Shown one piece after another: positions 9,505 to 58,628 of a DNA stretch of 64,000 bases; positions within the stretch are counted from its first letter, which is position 1; the number at the start of each line of letters is the position of its first letter. The DNA is taken from the NCBI GenBank assembly GCA_036496425.1, contig DASXLG010000202.1:69-64068 (forward strand), given 5' to 3'. The notes under the pieces are model-generated. The model saw only the letters and a program-made list of their open reading frames with translations. It was not told where the DNA came from and did not search any database. Source of the stretch: Terriglobia bacterium. GTDB taxonomy: Bacteria; Acidobacteriota; Terriglobia; 20CM-2-55-15. Position numbers and translations under genes: made by a program.

Positions 9505-10155
9505 ATGTCCAAAAGTAACACTGTCCAGCTCATCAAGCCATTGGATGGCTTCGGCAACGTCGCGGACGTGGATGTGATTATACGTGCAACTGCGATCCAG
9601 ACGGCCATGACCGGCAACGCGAACTACCCCGCTCCACCGGTCGATCTGGCGGCCCTGAAGACGAACATCGACGCTTTCGTGGCGCTCGTCGCGCAAGCGG
9701 CCGATGGAAGTAAGAAGGTCATTGCCGAAAAAAACAAGCAACGCGCAACCGTCGTGGAGATGGTGCGGATGCTTGGCCGCTACGTGGAAGGCGCATCGAA
9801 AGGTGATATGTCGATCTTCCAGACGAGCGGCTTCCAGTCTGCTTCAACGACAAAGACGAAATCACCGCCGTTGTCGGAGACGATCCGCAAAATCGCCCAT
9901 GGCCCCAACAGCGGACAGGCCACTATCTGGCTGCGTTCGCTGAAGGACGCGTTGAGCTACACCGTCCGTTATGCGCCCATGGTGAATGGCGCGGCGCCCA
10001 CAACGTGGACCGAGCAACCTATCGGTCTGCTGACGGCGCCCGTGCTGCTCACGGGTCTGACACCGGTCACTACCTATGCGTTTCAAACACGTGCCACGTT
10101 GAAGAACCACACGTACACGGACTGGAGCGACTCGGTAACGTTCATCGTGACGTAG
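9505..10155 (+). CDS. hypothetical protein with C-terminal fibronectin-III-like domain
   Basis: 216 aa with a very strong SD (AAAGGAGGA) 7 nt upstream and an AT-rich promoter-like tract at 9340-9480. The C-terminal ~90 aa show an FN3-like pattern (TVRYAP...W...LTGLTPVTTYAFQTRA). No signal peptide. Confidence 0.65.
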   Translation: MSKSNTVQLIKPLDGFGNVADVDVIIRATAIQTAMTGNANYPAPPVDLAALKTNIDAFVALVAQAADGSKKVIAEKNKQRATVVEMVRMLGRYVEGASKGDMSIFQTSGFQSASTTKTKSPPLSETIRKIAHGPNSGQATIWLRSLKDALSYTVRYAPMVNGAAPTTWTEQPIGLLTAPVLLTGLTPVTTYAFQTRATLKNHTYTDWSDSVTFIVT

Positions 10156-10158
10156 CCG

Positions 10159-10762
10159 TTAGGGGGCGCACACCCGGATTCCCGAATTAATTCGGGAATT
10201 CGGGTCCACCGGGATGTCACCTTTATATGTGGACACGGCGCCGGTCCACCTTCCCAGGAGCACCGGAGATGGTTGGAACGCGGGCGGCCGCGGAGCAGGG
10301 TTGGTTGATGCGGGAGCTGCGCGCCACTTGGGCAAAAGCGTGACCAGGATCTTGTCAACAACCTCTCCTGGCCCGCAATCGATGGAGTTACACAGCACCA
10401 CGACGGCGATTTTCTCTGAAGGGACCAGCCGCAGGAACGAGGCGACTCCTGCCATGCTCCCATCGTGTGCAACGCTGCGATAACCATAGAAAGAATCGTT
10501 GATGAGCCACCCGATTCCATAGCCCGTACCGGCTTCCGGATTGGACGGCGCCGGTTGGCTTTTGCATCTCGTCGATCGAAGCATCCGAAAGGACCGGCGT
10601 CTGGTCGGCAAGATCTGCCTTCAGGTGGTACATCCCGAAGCGCACAAGATCATGCGCACTGGAGAAGATGGCGGATGCGCCGCGATGATCAAAATCGTAA
10701 AGGCGAGCGCGAAGAGGATGGGCATGAGCCATTCTGCCCGGACGCATTCTAAGATGCAACAT
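10159..10762 (-). pseudogene. beta-lactamase/serine-hydrolase family pseudogene (C-terminal fragment, frameshifted)
   Basis: Two overlapping ORFs in different frames (10388..10762 and 10159..10611). Together they cover the C-terminal part of a class-C beta-lactamase-like fold (...ASAIFSSAHDLVRFG..., then GYGIGWLINDSFYGYRSVAHDGSMAGVASFLRLVPSEKIAVVVLCN). The N-terminal S-x-x-K region is missing. Confidence 0.6.
10172..10205. repeat. 34-bp palindrome (ACCCGGATTCCCGAATT|AATTCGGGAATTCGGGT), member of the GC-rich palindromic element family
   Basis: 17-bp arms with one G-U wobble, located in the 10156-10160 gap region after the FN3-like gene. The core CCCGAATT..AATTCGGG also appears inside the elements at 24477 and 34806. 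Confidence 0.6.
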
Positions 10763-23690: not shown

Positions 23691-24853
23691 TAGAGCAACT
23701 CCGCTGGCTTGCGAATCGCTTCGGCCAGATCGTTCAGAAACATTGCGCCTTGAGCGCCATCGATCACACGATGGTCGCCGGATAATGTCAGCGTCATCAT
23801 CGGCCGCACAGCGGGCTTTCCATCCACGGCGACGACGCGGTCGGCGATGCGGCCAACCGCGAGGATTGCCGCCTGGGGCGGCAGAATGATCGCGCTGAAC
23901 GCATCGACGTTATACATGCCGAGATTCGTAATCGTGAACGTTCCGTTCGCCACATCCGAAGGCTTCAGACGGCCGCCGCGCGCTCGCTCGGTGAGATCTT
24001 TCCGCTGCTGCGCGATGCCCGGGAGCGAAGCCGCGTCGGCGTTGGGAATGACTGCTCCGACCACACCGTCCGTCACCGCCATGGCAAGACTGATGTTGAT
24101 GTTCGGGTTGAGGTGGATGCCGTTCCGGACCCAGCTCGCGTTGACCTTGGGATGCTTCTTCAACACGCGCGCGGTGAGTGAAACAAGGAGATCCGTAATG
24201 GTGACTTTATCGCGGCCCTGTTTTTCACGGGTTTCGAGCAGCGCTGTGGCATCGAGATCGCGAACAAGGAAGAAATGAGGAACCTGAGTCCAGCTCTGCG
24301 TCGTGCGCTCGGCCATGAGACGCGCGACGGCGCTGAGCGTGGCGGAGGCTGAAGTGGCGCCCGCGAGGACGTCGTCACTGATAATCGTGCCGGCGGGACC
24401 GGAGCCTTTCAGCGACCCGAGATCGACACCCTGCTCTTTAGCAAGCCGCCGCGCCTTCGGAGAAATCTGGGCGCGCGGGGACGAATCAGGGGTCGCACCC
24501 CCAATTCCTAGGTTTCGGAATTCGGGGTGCGACCCCTGATTCGTCCCCGATTTCGGGCCGGTAATTTTTCTGGCGGAAGGAGCCGCAGTGCCGGAGTCGG
24601 CCGGGGGCGTCTCGCCGGGAGCGACGATCCAGGCGATCGTCACGCCGACCGGAACGACATCACCCTCCTGAGACTTGACGCCGGCGAGCACACCGTCCGC
24701 CGCCGCTTCCACTTCCACGACGGCTTTGTCCGTCTCGATCTCGAGAATCGGCTCGCCCTTACTGATGGCATCGCCTTCTTTCTTGAGCCACGAAACGATC
24801 TTTCCCGTTTCCTGCGCCATTTCCAGCGCAGGCATCACTATGCTGGTTGCCAT
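23690..24853 (-). CDS. 2-oxoacid dehydrogenase complex E2 (dihydrolipoamide acyltransferase)
   Basis: Lipoyl domain (EIETDKAVVEVEA), PSBD (ISPKARRLAKEQGVDLGSLKGSGPAG) and a catalytic domain ending DHRVIDGAQGAMFLNDL. Confidence 0.9.
   Translation of the reverse strand: MATSIVMPALEMAQETGKIVSWLKKEGDAISKGEPILEIETDKAVVEVEAAADGVLAGVKSQEGDVVPVGVTIAWIVAPGETPPADSGTAAPSARKITGPKSGTNQGSHPEFRNLGIGGATPDSSPRAQISPKARRLAKEQGVDLGSLKGSGPAGTIISDDVLAGATSASATLSAVARLMAERTTQSWTQVPHFFLVRDLDATALLETREKQGRDKVTITDLLVSLTARVLKKHPKVNASWVRNGIHLNPNINISLAMAVTDGVVGAVIPNADAASLPGIAQQRKDLTERARGGRLKPSDVANGTFTITNLGMYNVDAFSAIILPPQAAILAVGRIADRVVAVDGKPAVRPMMTLTLSGDHRVIDGAQGAMFLNDLAEAIRKPAELL
24477..24548. repeat. 72-nt perfect palindromic element lying in-frame inside the E2 linker
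   Basis: 25-bp perfect stem (GGGGACGAATCAGGGGTCGCACCCC / GGGGTGCGACCCCTGATTCGTCCCC), a 6-bp inner stem (AATTCC/GGAATT) and an 8-nt loop. Length is 72 nt (24 codons). It encodes the linker segment between the lipoyl domain and the PSBD. Confidence 0.7.
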
Positions 24854-28712: not shown

Positions 28713-28719
28713 AACCTTT

Positions 28720-28807
28720 ATTGGAGATTCGAGATTGGAGGTTGGAAATTAGAAATTTGCGGCACCGAAAATTTCCAATTTCCAACCTCCAATCTCGAAT
28801 TTCCAAT
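28720..28807. repeat. AT-rich palindromic element, copy 1 (TTGGAAATT family)
   Basis: 38-nt arms with 2 mismatches (ATTGGAGATTCGAGATTGGAGGTTGGAAATTAGAAATT ... AATTTCCAATTTCCAACCTCCAATCTCGAATTTCCAAT) and a 12-nt loop. GC about 33% in a ~60% GC background. Sits between the stop at 28712 and the ATG at 28828. Confidence 0.7.
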
Positions 28808-28827
28808 AAGTTTATAGGAGTTAAAAC

Positions 28828-30024
28828 ATGGATCTAGGTAATGGTCTCGGTCATCTGACGTATTCAACGCTGGTCCACCCGGGCGACACGTGGGAGGACA
28901 TGTGGCACAGCCTGATAACGTATGTGCCAAAGGTGAAGGAACGGATTTCTCCGAAGGAGCCGTTCGGCATTTCCCTTCGCCTTGCAAACGCATCCGCCGA
29001 GCGTCTCGTCAATGACAAGAAGGAACGGGACAAGCTGAAGAAGTTTCTCGCCGACAATGACATGTATCTTTACACGGTGAACGCGTTCCCGTATGGGCCG
29101 TTCAAGGGACGCGTCGTCAAGGAACAGGTTTATGAACCGGATTGGCGGAGCGATGAGCGAACGCAGTACACCATCAATGTCGCCGAAATCCTGGGCGATG
29201 TCGCTCCGGAAGGAAGCTCGCCCTCGATCCAGAGCGCTCCACTTGGTTTCAAGCCCCGCGTGACCGGACCGGACGTAGTCGCAAGCTATACCGAGCACGT
29301 CCTGCGCGTTGCCGCCCGCCTGGTCGATATCCATGCCCGCACCGGCCGCATGGTTGGCCTGGCGCTCGAACCCGAGCCGTTCTGCTTCCTGGAAACCACG
29401 GACGAAGCCGTGGACTACTTCACGAATCATCTGTACTCCGGCGCCGCCGCCGCGCGGGTGGCAAAGCTGGCCGGCATTCCGATCTCCGAAGCGCACATCG
29501 CATTGCGCCGGCACGTGGGTGTCGTGTTCGACATCTGCCATCAGGCGGTCGAATACGAGAACATTTCGGAATCGCTCCAGAAGCTGGTGAACGCCGGCAT
29601 CCCGATTTTCAAACTTCAGGAGGCCGCAGCGCTCTACATGCCGGAAGTGAACCCGGGCGTCATCGATGTGCTGACGCGCTTCGCGGACACGATCTACCTG
29701 ACACAGACGATGGAAAAGAAGGAAGGCCGGTTCAATCGATTCCTCAACCTCGAAGACGCCTTCGCAGCGTGGAAACAGAGTTCGGGTCCGCGGGAGTGGC
29801 GGACCCACATTCACGTGCCGGTTTTTCTCGACGACCTCGGGATGTTCCGGACCACGCGTTTCGCGATCGAAGACGCCTTGCGCTATCACAAGGCGAATCC
29901 GCTCTCACGGCAACTCGAAATCGAGACGTATACGTGGGATGTGCTGCCCGCAAGCTTGAAGACCGGCGATGTGGTGGATTACGTCTGCCGTGAACTGGAG
30001 TGGGTCAAGAGCCAGCTTTTGTAA
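28828..30024 (+). CDS. xylose-isomerase-like TIM-barrel protein (sugar phosphate isomerase/epimerase; EboE-like?)
   Basis: 398 aa. AGGAG SD. Conserved His/Glu-containing blocks of AP-endonuclease-2 / xylose-isomerase-like TIM barrels (HIHVPVF...). The EboE assignment is tentative. Confidence 0.65.
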   Translation: MDLGNGLGHLTYSTLVHPGDTWEDMWHSLITYVPKVKERISPKEPFGISLRLANASAERLVNDKKERDKLKKFLADNDMYLYTVNAFPYGPFKGRVVKEQVYEPDWRSDERTQYTINVAEILGDVAPEGSSPSIQSAPLGFKPRVTGPDVVASYTEHVLRVAARLVDIHARTGRMVGLALEPEPFCFLETTDEAVDYFTNHLYSGAAAARVAKLAGIPISEAHIALRRHVGVVFDICHQAVEYENISESLQKLVNAGIPIFKLQEAAALYMPEVNPGVIDVLTRFADTIYLTQTMEKKEGRFNRFLNLEDAFAAWKQSSGPREWRTHIHVPVFLDDLGMFRTTRFAIEDALRYHKANPLSRQLEIETYTWDVLPASLKTGDVVDYVCRELEWVKSQLL

Positions 30025-30027
30025 CTA

Positions 30028-30104
30028 CTGGAAATTCGAAATTGGAAGTTGGAAATTTCTTATATAAGAAATGAAGCAACCTCCAATTTCGAATTTCCAA
30101 TAAG
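30028..30104. repeat. AT-rich palindromic element, copy 2 (TTGGAAATT family)
   Basis: CTGGAAATTCGAAATTGGAAGTTGGAAATTTC ... GAAATGAAGCAACCTCCAATTTCGAATTTCCAATAAGTT. Shares the arm sequence and the 3' end (CGAATTTCCAATAAGTT) with copy 1, in the same orientation. Confidence 0.7.
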
Positions 30105-30108
30105 TTCT

Positions 30109-31287
30109 TTACGACCGAATAAGCGAATACCTGGGGTCCGCCGCCAGACACTCTGCTTCCGGCAGTCCAAGTTCCTTCTTCACGATATTGGTGCCGCGCA
30201 CCAACGCCACCGTCTTGTAATACGCATGGCGGCGGCTCATACCTTCACGTCCCATGCCGCAGTCCGTCGTTACAGCGAGGCGGTCGGGTGAAATAAACTT
30301 CAACGACTGACGCAGCAGGTCGGCCACTTCTTCGGGACTTTCCACCTGGAGCGTGTGGTGGTCGATGACGCCGATGGCGATTTTCTTTCCCGTGATCCCT
30401 TTGCACACGGCCTCGAGGTCCAGCGCATTCGAGCTCTTCATTTCGAACGTGATGAGATCCGCATCGACTTGATTGAGAACTTCAAGGGCCGGTTTGTAAG
30501 ACTGCACGTGCGCGAACATGCGCTGCTGAGACGGATTGCCCCAGCAGGTATGACACCAGACTTCCGTCTTCGCCCGCAGTCCTTTGACGGTGTTGTTGAA
30601 CACCTTCAACATGAAATCCAGCGTGATGTCCTTGTTTGGAACCGGGCGCGCAGCGAGTAAATGGAGCTGCGGATCCTCGATCTGAATCACCTGGCATCCG
30701 GCGTCCGCGACATCGTGCAATTCCTTATTGAATGCGTCGCTCAAAGCCATGATGCGCGACGGCAGATCCTTATAGTGCTCGTCCTGGACGGCATATGCGA
30801 CCAGCTCCGGCGCCACCGTGCCGAACTTCACCGGACGGTTCGTCAGGCGCTGCGCGGCTTTCCAGACTTCGGGGTACTGCATTTCTCCGGGCGCGACAGG
30901 GCCGACGATCTTCGGCATGACGCGGGCTTCAAGATAGTCATGCAGGATGTGGCCGCGCGGGAATCCGATGCCACCGGCGCCGGCGCGGGCGAGTTGCGGA
31001 TGGCTGGCTTCGAATCCGGCCATGTGGCGCGGAGGATAGCTGGTCCACGTCTGTCCGCCGACGTCCTGATCGAACCGGCAGTCGCCATCCGTAACGATGT
31101 CCAGGCCCGCATTCTCCTGGTCGCGGAGATAGCAGGCCAGCGCATCCGTATATTGTTCGCGGAACTTGTTGTTCGTCATCGCATCAACAAATGATTTCGT
31201 GCCCAGGTTCTCCTGGTACCAGCTCGGACGCGGAAGCGAACCGATGATGGATGTGGGCAAAACCTTACCTGCAGTCGCTTTCAGCAT
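30109..31287 (-). CDS. cobalamin-independent methionine synthase (MetE C-terminal domain)-like protein
   Basis: 392 aa. IGSLPRP N-terminal motif and C-terminal CGMG... blocks typical of the MetE/UroD-like methyltransferase fold. Confidence 0.75.
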   Translation of the reverse strand: MLKATAGKVLPTSIIGSLPRPSWYQENLGTKSFVDAMTNNKFREQYTDALACYLRDQENAGLDIVTDGDCRFDQDVGGQTWTSYPPRHMAGFEASHPQLARAGAGGIGFPRGHILHDYLEARVMPKIVGPVAPGEMQYPEVWKAAQRLTNRPVKFGTVAPELVAYAVQDEHYKDLPSRIMALSDAFNKELHDVADAGCQVIQIEDPQLHLLAARPVPNKDITLDFMLKVFNNTVKGLRAKTEVWCHTCWGNPSQQRMFAHVQSYKPALEVLNQVDADLITFEMKSSNALDLEAVCKGITGKKIAIGVIDHHTLQVESPEEVADLLRQSLKFISPDRLAVTTDCGMGREGMSRRHAYYKTVALVRGTNIVKKELGLPEAECLAADPRYSLIRS

Positions 31288-33623: not shown

Positions 33624-34793
33624 TCAGCTATTTGGAGAGGACCAGAGACGACGGGAGACAATATCCGCCCCTTCGCGGAGCGCTTTGAGTTTCAACCAGA
33701 CGGCTGGTTCGATGACCCATTCGCGCCCGGTGAACGTCCCAAAACCGCAGTCGGCGCTGGCAATCACCCGTTCGCGGTCACCGACCGCAGTCACGGCTTC
33801 CTCAATGCGGCGAGCGACGACTTCAGGATGCTCGACGATATTACTGGTGGTCTCGACGCATCCCGGAACCAGGACCATCTCCACCGGAAGAGGGTGACGG
33901 CGGAAGGCGGAATACTCATGCTGATGACGCGGGTTGGCGAACTCAATACTCAACGCGCCGACCCTGGCCTGGTAAAGCACAGGCAGCACCAGATCGAGCG
34001 GCACATCGAAAACATGTGGACCGTCCCAATTTCCCCAGCAGCAGTGCAGTCTCACCCGATCGCGCGGAATTCCTTCGATCGCTTTGTTGATGGCGGCGAC
34101 ATGCTTTTCAATTCCCGCGACGAATTGCGCGTCGGTTGCATCGCGGTAGAACATGGACCGATCCATTGCCAGGTCGGGCGAATCGATCTGCACGATAAAG
34201 CCGGCCTCATGAATCGCGCGGTATTCATTGCTTAACTCGCGCGCGAGCGCCATGAGGTACGCCTCGTGCGAATCGTAGTAGGCGTTGAGCATGGTAGTTG
34301 AAACAATGCCGGGCGAAGGCGCAGTGATGAAACAGTCTGAAAATGCCGGCGCCGCCTGAAGGGCCCGCTTGAGCCGGGCAAGTTCCTCGCGGATGGCGCC
34401 CGTTCCCAGATAGTGCAGTTCTTTTTGTGCCTCGGGCGCATTTTGCATGCGGCTGCGCTTCGGGAAGCGCTGTTTCAGAACCTCGATCAGCTCCGGGAAT
34501 TCTTCATAATCGCGGCCGCGGCGGCGCTTCGATTCTCCCGCAAATCCGGACATCCGCTGCGCCACATAGGTCTGAAACCCGACGCGCTGCTGTTCGCCGT
34601 CATTGCCGATATCGACACCGGCCGCCGCCTGCTTTTCGACTACATGTTGCACGGCACGACCCATGGCACGCGCGAGCGCGTCTTTATCGACAGCGGCTCC
34701 CTCTTCGCGGCGGACCAGTAGGTCAGAAAGTTCGTCGTTGCGCGGCAAGCTTCCGACATGAGTTACGAGAATGCGATCGCGGCTGCTGTTCAT
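33624..34793 (-). CDS. MetE-like (cobalamin-independent methionine synthase family) protein, second copy
   Basis: Tool ORF trimmed to the internal ATG (MNSSRDRILVTHVGSLPRNDEL...). The start coordinate is +/-1 nt because the printed text and ORF-track coordinates disagree by one base in this region. Confidence 0.7.
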   Translation of the reverse strand: MNSSRDRILVTHVGSLPRNDELSDLLVRREEGAAVDKDALARAMGRAVQHVVEKQAAAGVDIGNDGEQQRVGFQTYVAQRMSGFAGESKRRRGRDYEEFPELIEVLKQRFPKRSRMQNAPEAQKELHYLGTGAIREELARLKRALQAAPAFSDCFITAPSPGIVSTTMLNAYYDSHEAYLMALARELSNEYRAIHEAGFIVQIDSPDLAMDRSMFYRDATDAQFVAGIEKHVAAINKAIEGIPRDRVRLHCCWGNWDGPHVFDVPLDLVLPVLYQARVGALSIEFANPRHQHEYSAFRRHPLPVEMVLVPGCVETTSNIVEHPEVVARRIEEAVTAVGDRERVIASADCGFGTFTGREWVIEPAVWLKLKALREGADIVSRRLWSSPNS

Positions 34794-34805
34794 CGTCCAC
34801 AGTAT

Positions 34806-34859
34806 AGGGTCGCACACCTGAATTCCCGAATTCGAATTCGGGAGTTCAGGTGTGCGACC
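34806..34859. repeat. 54-bp near-perfect palindrome (GGGTCGCACACCTGAATTCCCGAATTC|GAATTCGGGAGTTCAGGTGTGCGACCC)
   Basis: 27-bp arms with a single G-U wobble and no loop. It overlaps the last codons and stop of the GT2 gene, and ends about 10 nt before the MetE-like start. Coordinates are +/-1. Confidence 0.65.
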
Positions 34860-36279
34860 CCCTCCGCCCCATGCGCCCCACATTCCGCGCGAAGCGGTCC
34901 CAACTCCTATCGCCGCGGAGAAATTGCACGACGCCTTTTGCGTTCGCATACACGAGGATCGGCCGATAAAGCAGCAGATCCAGCGGCGCAATCAGCGCCA
35001 TTCGTGTCAGCGCGCTCACCCGGTAATAGTGGAAGGCCGATTCGTTCAACCACAAACTGATCTCCGACATGATTCCGAGCGCAAGCACCTGAATCCCGAG
35101 CAGGGAAAAGAACTCTTTGAGATCCACCAATCGCAGCCAAAGCCCAAGACCCAGGGAAGCCAGGACGATCAACTGTACGAATGGCCCGAAACACTCGGAA
35201 ATAATCAAATACGGTAACCCGACAAACCCGAGCGCGCCGTAACGTGGCCGGAATAGAACTCTTCGGTAGTGCCACACCGTCTCCAGGATCACGCGCTGCC
35301 AGCGCGCCCGCTGGCTGATAAGCGCTGTAAGCCGCTCAGGGCCTTCGGTCGCCCCCACGATATCGGGAAGCGACAGGACGCGGCCGGGCCTCTTGTCGCG
35401 CTTGTACCTCTCCAGAACCCGGACTGTCATTTCGAGGTCTTCGCAGGTGAAAGCGGGCGAGAAGCCTCCAACCTCGAGCACGACGTCACGGCGCCAGATG
35501 GCAAAAGCCCCGCTGGCGCACAGCATGATGTTCATGCGGCTCCATGCCAGGCGATTGTTGAGAAATGACCGAAGAATCTCCAGGTGCTGGAAGTTGATCC
35601 AGAGATGCCGATCGATGTTCTTGTTTCCGATTTCGCCGGCCTCCTCCTGAAGTTCATGCCGGACGGCAACAATGCTGGTAATACCCAGCACTCCGGCCGG
35701 ATCTTTAATCGCCGGGCGCATCGCAACCAGCAGCGCATCGGGTTCGTATGCCGCATCGCCGTCGACGCAGCAGATATAACGGTCGCGCGCGAAGTTTACT
35801 CCGCAGTTCAACGCGTCGGCTTTGCCGCCGTTGCATTTATCGATGACGATCAGCCGTGGATCGGTCCGGCTGCGATAAATAGCACGCACGGGGCTGGTTT
35901 GCAGGAGCCGCCGCGCTGTCACACTGACCGACTGCAAGACGAATTCCCGGCGAAGTGCTCCAAGCGTTTCGTCTTTTGATCCGTCGTTAACGACGACAAT
36001 TTCAAATTCCGGATACTCAAAGGCCAGGAGCCGGCGCACCACCGCTCCAATCATGCCCTGCTCGTTGTAGACCGGGACAATGACGGAGACGGGGATGGTG
36101 AAGCGCGAATCCGACAACGCATCATAATCGTCCGTATGCGACTCGGCCGTACGTCTCCGGTTTTCCAACATGGCGACAATGGCCATGAACAGAGTGAAGG
36201 CGTAAAGCAGCATCAGGTATGCAAAACTGAGCAGAAAGGTCCAATCGAAGAATGGTCTTAGCGCGAGCCCTGAAATCAT
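34846..36279 (-). CDS. family 2 glycosyltransferase, processive synthase type (PgaC/IcaA/BcsA-like)
   Basis: 477 aa with N- and C-terminal TM segments. Carries the GT2 DxD and QxxRW-type blocks (...VNDGSKDET..., ...QRARWQRV...). Confidence 0.85.
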   Translation of the reverse strand: MISGLALRPFFDWTFLLSFAYLMLLYAFTLFMAIVAMLENRRRTAESHTDDYDALSDSRFTIPVSVIVPVYNEQGMIGAVVRRLLAFEYPEFEIVVVNDGSKDETLGALRREFVLQSVSVTARRLLQTSPVRAIYRSRTDPRLIVIDKCNGGKADALNCGVNFARDRYICCVDGDAAYEPDALLVAMRPAIKDPAGVLGITSIVAVRHELQEEAGEIGNKNIDRHLWINFQHLEILRSFLNNRLAWSRMNIMLCASGAFAIWRRDVVLEVGGFSPAFTCEDLEMTVRVLERYKRDKRPGRVLSLPDIVGATEGPERLTALISQRARWQRVILETVWHYRRVLFRPRYGALGFVGLPYLIISECFGPFVQLIVLASLGLGLWLRLVDLKEFFSLLGIQVLALGIMSEISLWLNESAFHYYRVSALTRMALIAPLDLLLYRPILVYANAKGVVQFLRGDRSWDRFARNVGRMGRRGSHT

Positions 36280-43571: not shown

Positions 43572-43663
43572 TCTGTAGTCGCGGACTTTAGCCCGCGTTC
43601 CGCCCTCGCCCGGCAACATAGTGGTCGAGACTGGAACGCGGGCTGAAGCCCGCGACTACATCT
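43572..43663. repeat. ~92-nt inverted-repeat element (TGTAGTCGCGG...CCGCGACTACA arms)
   Basis: ~29-nt arms with 3 mismatches, separated by ~30 nt. Each arm also contains an internal GCGGGCT..AGCCCGC hairpin. Confidence 0.55.
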
Positions 43664-58538: not shown

Positions 58539-58628
58539 AAAAGGGGAAGGAACGCAAGAAGCACAAAAGGCACAAGAAGGGCGGGTCTTTCTTGTGCCTT
58601 TTGTGCTTCTTGCGTTCCTTCCCCTTTT
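58539..58628. terminator. perfect 40-bp-stem hairpin (purine-rich / pyrimidine-rich arms) immediately after the GspS-like stop codon
   Basis: 58539-58578 (GAAAAGGGGAAGGAACGCAAGAAGCACAAAAGGCACAAGAA region) pairs perfectly with 58589-58628, with a 10-nt loop. On the minus-strand transcript it is followed by CCUUUUCGUGUUUCG. The hairpin ends 36 nt before the HK start codon. Confidence 0.5.

Follow-up and report, generated by a model that had tools for sequence, protein, structure and literature searches.

Positions of the REP, BIME and REPIN repeats are conserved, their variants are genome-specific, and sites that are filled in one genome are empty in another. Part of this position-and-variant pattern comes from the background given in two studies (PMC3733652, PMC6006769). 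GTAG and CGTC tags define the REP superfamilies, whose units are imperfect palindromes of 20-40 bp (PMC3733652). Both REP-like repeats with atypical feet and Y1 enzymes are on record for the Acidobacteria, where TIR repeat families and atypical REP-like hairpins (Koribacter, Solibacter) are linked to TIRYT and class 3 HuH-Y1 genes, with about 600 atypical hairpins linked to the class 3 genes in Solibacter (PMC3733652; PMC6006769); the TIR repeats that are associated with TIRYTs contain the motif GGGGWSAS (PMC3733652).

We analysed a 64-kb stretch of Terriglobia DNA (hereafter the window, meaning the whole stretch) in which a 54-bp palindrome, here called E1, lies at the junction of a family-2 glycosyltransferase (GT2) gene and a MetE-like gene. 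E1 probably belongs to a family of hairpin palindromes, dispersed and lineage-specific and similar in kind to REP, REPIN and BIME repeats, that inhabits an uncultured soil population of Terriglobia (Acidobacteriota) and its relatives. Repeats of this kind are known, but this family had not been described; E1 is one of its copies rather than a terminator specific to this locus.

The palindrome and the GT2-MetE junction

The two arms of E1 are 27 nt long, meet without a spacer and are complementary at 26 of 27 positions (Table 1). A sequence-only reading of the window had recognised a loop-less palindrome with 27-bp arms and one mismatched pair, all of which is seen in the sequence, but had placed it at 34806-34859; its true span is shifted one base to the right. 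The sole mismatch sets T34823 against G34844, which makes a G.U pair in + strand RNA and an A.C mismatch in - strand RNA. The single G-U wobble of that reading is thus correct for + strand RNA only and does not apply to the sense (-) transcript, in whose fold the mismatch becomes a 1x1 internal loop. Matches to the E1 arm with at most three mismatches numbered zero across 100 dinucleotide-preserving shuffles of the window, and the folding z-scores of E1 were -7.3 (RNA, - strand) and -9.8 (DNA). The outer arms found in many family copies are absent from E1, which aligns to positions 15-69 of the 83 in covariance model R1.

Table 1 Positions of E1, its flanking genes and related elements in the window
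Feature	Position	Strand	Description
E1	34807..34860	.	54-bp near-perfect palindrome, core of a dispersed hairpin-repeat family
E1 left arm	34807..34833	.	GGGTCGCACACCTGAATTCCCGAATTC; identical to the subfamily consensus
E1 right arm	34834..34860	.	GAATTCGGGAGTTCAGGTGTGCGACCC; one substitution relative to the consensus, G34844 for A
E1 flanks			GT2 tail ends ...GGGGCGGAGG; beyond E1, the MetE-like side is TATACTGTGGACG
PgaC-like GT2 gene	34846..36279	-	477 aa, ends ...GRRGSHT*; closes an epimerase-YaiO-HEAT-GT2 cluster
GT2 TGA stop	34846..34848	-	derived from the element's conserved CCTGAA motif
TATACT, -10-like box	34801..34806	-	abuts E1, 7 nt before the MetE-like ATG; putative promoter function
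MetE-like (Meth_synt_2) gene	33624..34793	-	389 aa; ATG at 34793
Family copy with outer arms	24476..24549	.	in frame (GTNQGSHPEFRNLGIGGATPDSSP) in the linker of a dihydrolipoamide acyltransferase (E2p), between its lipoyl and E3-binding domains
Degenerate family copy	10163..10211	.	perfect part 10172-10205; 7 nt past the stop of ORF 9505-10155

As had been read from the sequence, the right arm of E1 encodes the end of GT2: at 34846-34860 it holds the G-S-H-T codons and the TGA. The family consensus is open in two of its three reading frames; the third reads GSHT* and is the one that GT2 uses. Among GT2 homologues, conservation stops at W-[DH]-[RK]-F-x-R-N (also given as W-D-R-F-x-R-N) and the tail beyond varies in sequence and length, so a swap of the last GT2 residues would likely be tolerated. 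The C-terminus and the stop codon of the synthase derive from a repeat, which also makes up most of the apparent 52-nt intergenic spacer. The left arm, which had been put about 10 nt from the MetE-like ATG, lies 13 nt away.

The sequence-only reading had proposed a comparison with syntenic loci, and in that comparison the GT2-MetE junction is missing from relatives at 73% (GT2) and 85-91% (MetE-like) amino acid identity. After the closest GT2 orthologue (73%) comes a convergent DUF1684 gene. Upstream neighbours of the MetE-like orthologues (85-91%) are unrelated, often a divergent Vgb_lyase-like gene, and their downstream neighbours are conserved (PEGA, GFO_IDH, a second MetE-like gene and a 398-aa ORF). 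By this comparison of neighbourhoods, the adjacency of GT2 and the MetE-like gene is specific to this lineage, with E1 exactly at the junction. We found no empty-site allele of the junction: other contigs of the same population are 99.995-100% identical, one of them a JGI contig at 99.995% in which E1 is present unchanged, and relatives have other upstream neighbours. That a mobile element had landed in a 50-nt gap, as had been suggested, stands in part; a dispersed family is borne out by about 30 unrelated sites, but the gap is not, because E1 overlaps the GT2 frame at a junction found in this lineage only.

Several further observations concern this neighbourhood. A second MetE-like (Meth_synt_2) paralogue lies at 30109-31287, about 2.3 kb downstream of the first, and the pair is conserved in relatives with PEGA and GFO_IDH between its members. 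A different hairpin with 19-nt arms (L170 430-478) overlaps the TGA of an unrelated gene upstream of a MetE-like protein that is 91% identical. One metagenome contig of the same population terminates within E1, its position 1 corresponding to window position 34843 (L169); given this contig end, and since assemblers break at the repeat, short contigs will under-report copies.

The -10-like box next to E1 recurs in relatives, where we found GATACT-N7-ATG (L170, L171), TATAAT-N18-ATG (L172) and GATAAG-N5-ATG (L173), compared with TATACT-N7-ATG in the window; the DNA upstream of the box in these four loci is otherwise unrelated to the window. Judged from this comparison, the element does not include the 13 nt that separate it from the ATG, and these belong to the native upstream region. 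No Shine-Dalgarno sequence precedes the MetE-like gene, and GGAGG is present at other genes of the window. The hexamer may therefore be the -10 box of a MetE-like mRNA that is leaderless or has a very short leader; if the box is correctly assigned, E1 would fill the spacer and the -35 region of its promoter. As regards the cis-element for the next gene that had been suggested, what the sequence displays is the contact of E1 with this conserved box.

Copies, pairing and genomic sites

An arm profile and covariance model R1 both match only three loci in the window, at 34807, 24476 and 10163, which upholds the kinship that had been proposed between E1 and the palindromes at 24477 and 10172. The gene that precedes the copy at 10163 is fibronectin-type-III-like and has an orthologue in L157/L159 that is about 70% identical (DNA). 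In L157 a family copy likewise lies 7 nt after the orthologous stop, but it is a different variant from the copy at 10163. Close orthologues of E2p differ in the linker, which contains the GGGTCGCAC element in the window (24476-24549), another palindrome in L176, and none in L175, three states in all. The L176 palindrome (10302-10375) is perfect, has a GGGGTCAGACCCC core and scores 50 bits with model R1; in L175 (1710-1930; E2p at 88% amino acid identity) the linker is an ordinary one. On these sequences, the linker site would be a hot spot, or else elements replace one another there. Taken together, conserved positions, genome-specific variants and filled and empty sites make up, in our analysis, the pattern described for REP, BIME and REPIN repeats.

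The sequence-only reading had also suggested a genome-wide search with the arm; a scan of metagenomes located about 27 further sites, so the element is dispersed and not unique to this locus. A strict two-arm pattern of 27 bases retrieved 31 loci in metagenome contigs (~27 distinct sites), all of the same architecture. They lie on soil contigs with a GC content of 51-58%, against 58% in the window; forest labels come from separately fetched related contigs (L171, L173, L175). The family core is GGGTCGCAC-(A/C)CC(N)TGAATTCCCGAATTC followed by its mirror image, and the total length is 54-80 bp. Outer arms are common and covary, as in GGGAAATCAG/CTGATTTCCC and also GAAAAAGGG/CCCTTTTT. Over 55-57 nt, copies on unrelated contigs share 98% identity with E1, which equals the consensus of the ACCTG subfamily except for A-to-G at 34844. 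Subfamilies sort by sample, with ACCTG in Ga0070738 and the window and with CCGTG and CCCTG in Ga01820xx. An origin of E1 in place, as a locus-specific hairpin with a chance likeness to the other palindromes of the window, has only its gene-end position in its favour and, given the 98% identity with unrelated contigs and the absence of chance arm matches from the shuffles, has a practically negligible probability.

Pairing is maintained across the family. In an alignment of 25 copies, 91% of cells were paired and 77 cells had changed on both sides, compared with 27 +/- 4 in shuffles; when the partner columns were slid, paired cells fell to 29-55%. That the nine terminal pairs never vary merely reflects the search pattern, which demanded them. 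Ten of the 25 copies are perfect palindromes, and folding energies range from -35 to -78 kcal/mol. Taken singly, the arms of L145, L146 and L140 form more stable folds than shuffles do (z -2.7 to -4.1), and those of L155, L160, L162, the E2p copy of the window and E1 do not. The notion that each arm is a REP unit held in only three of the eight copies tested. The orientation of G.U versus A.C mismatches was considered as a test for selection on RNA; single mismatches are few, and that of E1, an A.C in the sense RNA, speaks against any fine-tuned selection on this copy at the RNA level.

Broader searches did not extend the family. Among 185,579 species-representative genomes, which do not include the source genome, the one-arm pattern GAATTCGGG-N0-9-GTGCGACCC gave 118 single matches, none palindromic and at chance level, and the exact E1 arm was seen in none of these genomes. 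In viral contigs, the pattern GGGTCGCAC-N10-40-GTGCGACCC returned 16 hairpins, none of the E1 family. Rfam 15 gave no match at the gathering threshold over the whole window, where a tRNA scan was also empty, and a literature search on the element sequence yielded no relevant paper. A restriction-linked logic found no support either: the window has 36 GAATTC (EcoRI) sites where its base composition predicts about 10, just five of them in the elements, and there is no sign of avoidance.

Copies are concentrated at gene ends. At 14 of 30 sites, an ORF of 110 aa or more runs towards the element and has its stop codon no more than 15 nt from it, compared with 2.3 +/- 1.5 at random (maximum 9 in 1000 trials); at 12 of the 30 sites the stop codon was wholly outside the element. 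Several copies separate convergent genes (L141, L156, L164), and two are intragenic and in frame, one in the E2p linker (window 24476) and one in a GT2 domain (L160). In L144, L156, L158 and L164 the copy is preceded by an A-run and followed by a T-run. No target-site duplication of fixed length was consistent among 25 copies.

Other palindromes occur nearby. Two related AT-rich palindromes of the TTGGARATTCGARATTGGARGTTG type (28718-28809 and 30026-30102; arms of 26-45 nt) flank an ORF at 28828-30024 (398 aa) that has no Pfam match and is conserved beside the second MetE-like gene in relatives. A perfect palindrome at 58539-58628 (AAAAGGGGAAGGAACGCAAGAAGCACAAAAGGCACAAGAA...) has arms of 40 nt around a loop of 10 nt and shows no sequence relationship to the E1 family. 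In L155 (3545-3672), an inverted repeat with arms of ~35 nt and a spacer of ~57 nt lies between convergent ORFs. Long perfect hairpins appear common in this genome and in the relative L001 (6074-6164), and the placing of hairpins on or just behind stop codons seems to be typical of these genomes in general.

Transcript ends, mobilisation and competing explanations

In the - strand transcript of GT2, E1 would fold into a 25-bp stem with a UCGA loop and the stop codon inside, at about -45 to -50 kcal/mol, and we consider that the GT2 message probably carries it at its 3' end as a strong RNA stem-loop. The sequence-only reading had cast E1 as the terminator of an EPS operon, a role that the sequence does not favour: no U-tract follows the stem on the - strand (UAUACUGUGG) or the + strand (CCUCCGCCCC), and a terminator scan did not call E1, so that a canonical intrinsic terminator is unlikely here. 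The preference of the family for the 15 nt after stops, together with the A/T tracts of some copies, keeps a role at RNA 3' ends plausible, and the copies with such tracts look, from their flanks, like true bidirectional terminators. E1 itself would more likely block 3' exonucleases and act as a pause or partial-termination element, and would in this way separate expression of the EPS-type cluster from that of the MetE-like gene in the absence of canonical intrinsic termination. This raises the question of whether the EPS-type cluster is insulated from a MetE-like gene that seems to keep its own adjacent -10 box.

One may postulate a broader version of this role, in which the whole family consists of selected bidirectional terminators that are not actively mobile and E1 terminates the GT2 cluster. 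The strong enrichment directly past stops and between convergent genes and the A-run and T-run flanks all fit such a scenario, as do the retention of position between diverged relatives and the presence of other hairpins at the equivalent site upstream of the MetE-like gene in relatives. We nevertheless regard it as unlikely. Besides the missing U-tracts and terminator call at E1, near-identical 54-nt cores at unrelated loci imply copying rather than independent origin, the in-frame copies in the E2p linker and the GT2 domain cannot terminate, and stems of -50 to -78 kcal/mol go far beyond what termination needs.

Under our preferred reading of E1 as one copy of a dispersed REP-like family, the family would spread or be homogenised through a single-stranded hairpin intermediate that may be handled by an HUH-Y1 (RAYT-like) enzyme, the gene for which would lie in another part of the genome. 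Four features lead us to this proposal, namely the lack of target-site duplications, the covariation of the hairpins, the lineage-specific variants and a GTAG REP doublet in the window. This doublet, at 43575-43659, is canonical and consists of GTAGTCGCGGACTTTAGCCCGCG and an inverted partner GTAGTCGCGGGCTTCAGCCCGCG 39 nt apart; it is REPIN-like, belongs to a different family, and suggests that a RAYT is encoded elsewhere in the genome. Queries with E. coli RayT, six acidobacterial TIRYTs and one from Rhodopirellula (PMC3733652, supplement 5) gave no tblastn match below E = 0.018 in the window and about 110 kb of related loci (L001, L002, L137-L167), and no Y1 gene was found beside family copies in the fetched loci searched. 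As no RAYT- or TIRYT-like gene was found in this DNA, we only infer the mobilising enzyme. The ORF at 28828-30024, a weak tblastn match, has no Pfam match and is not a credible Y1 candidate.

A more far-reaching possibility, to which we assign a low probability, is that the GGGTCGCAC hairpins form a self-maintaining population that homes to, or replaces, hairpins at gene 3' ends and in linkers. Such a population could donate stop codons and mark or even mediate breakpoints, for example the fusion of the GT2 cluster with the MetE-like gene, and would be driven by an HUH-type enzyme acting on an untagged, fully palindromic substrate. Homing or replacement of this kind would explain why each genome has its own variant at orthologous sites, as in the E2p linker and at 10163/L157.

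Two further explanations fare poorly. E1 is short, dispersed, non-coding and wholly an inverted repeat, as would be expected of a MITE moved by a DDE transposase through terminal inverted repeats; such an origin is very unlikely, however, since 25 copies lack a fixed-length target-site duplication, the termini are inconsistent with outer arms that vary and covary among copies, no transposase gene was found beside any copy, and an orthologous position can be conserved while the sequence variant differs. We see just as small a chance that E1 is a protein-binding palindrome, whether an operator or a nucleoid-, gyrase- or IHF-type site, that regulates the MetE-like gene or local topology. Its dyad symmetry and its place against the -10-like box, over the would-be -35 region, would suit such a site, and binding of gyrase, IHF and Pol I has been reported for BIME/REP repeats (PMC6006769); most copies, however, lie after stops or within genes rather than upstream of promoters, their 27-40-bp arms far exceed known operator half-sites, and the covariation of the outer arms preserves pairing and not a fixed sequence.

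Comparison with described repeats and hairpins

The reading of E1 as a member of a REP-like family thus adds a repeat family from uncultured Terriglobia to the REP/REPIN-like elements, one characterised by covariation, in-frame coding copies and lineage-specific variants. Its resemblance to Rho-independent terminators is limited to a GC-rich stem base right after the stop codon and, for some copies, to A/T runs between convergent genes; those terminators usually have a stem of 5-12 bp and a U-tract, whereas E1 has a 25-bp stem, no U-tract and the stop codon inside the stem. With Rickettsia palindromic elements (RPE) and intragenic REPs, the family shares in-frame palindromes that are tolerated in proteins, here in the E2p linker and the GT2 domain of L160, and E1 rewrites a C-terminus. 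RPEs, however, are 100-150 bp long and CGTC-tagged (PMC3733652), and the E1 family has no sequence similarity to them and lies mostly outside genes.

The likeness to the REP, BIME and REPIN repeats of Proteobacteria, with their RAYT/TnpA_REP HUH-Y1 enzymes, is closer. Both consist of dispersed hairpins that are mostly just downstream of genes, lack target-site duplications and occasionally lie in frame in linkers or loops, and both have lineage-specific variants at orthologous positions with compensatory pairing; the long hairpin of the E1 family also resembles the inverted doublet of a REPIN. The family differs in having neither GTAG nor CGTC at either end of E1 or of the consensus, the feet in the alignment being ..A(T/A)NNG-GGGTCGCAC. 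Where REP units are imperfect, 20-40 bp long and provided with a spacer, the hairpins of the E1 family are 54-80 bp long, often perfect, and have a loop of 0-10 nt. Measured as a REP, the family thus has the dispersed sites and the position downstream of genes, and departs from the type in its tag and in its size and perfection. Should a mobilising enzyme be found, systems of the REPIN-RAYT type would reach fully palindromic, untagged substrates in Acidobacteria.

The TIR repeats and atypical hairpins of Acidobacteria are the closest published relatives within the phylum and, like the E1 family, are high-copy secondary structures without a GTAG tag, a likeness that we draw from their description only. 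The class 3 CnGA foot is described at the 5' side; in the E1 family just some copies have CTGA or CGGA, located 3' of the core. The foot GGGGTCGC of the E1 family matches the GGGGWSAS motif of TIRYT-associated repeats at seven of eight positions, and the related palindromes at L155 3545-3672 and L176 10302-10375 carry GGGGTCAG, which matches it at all eight.
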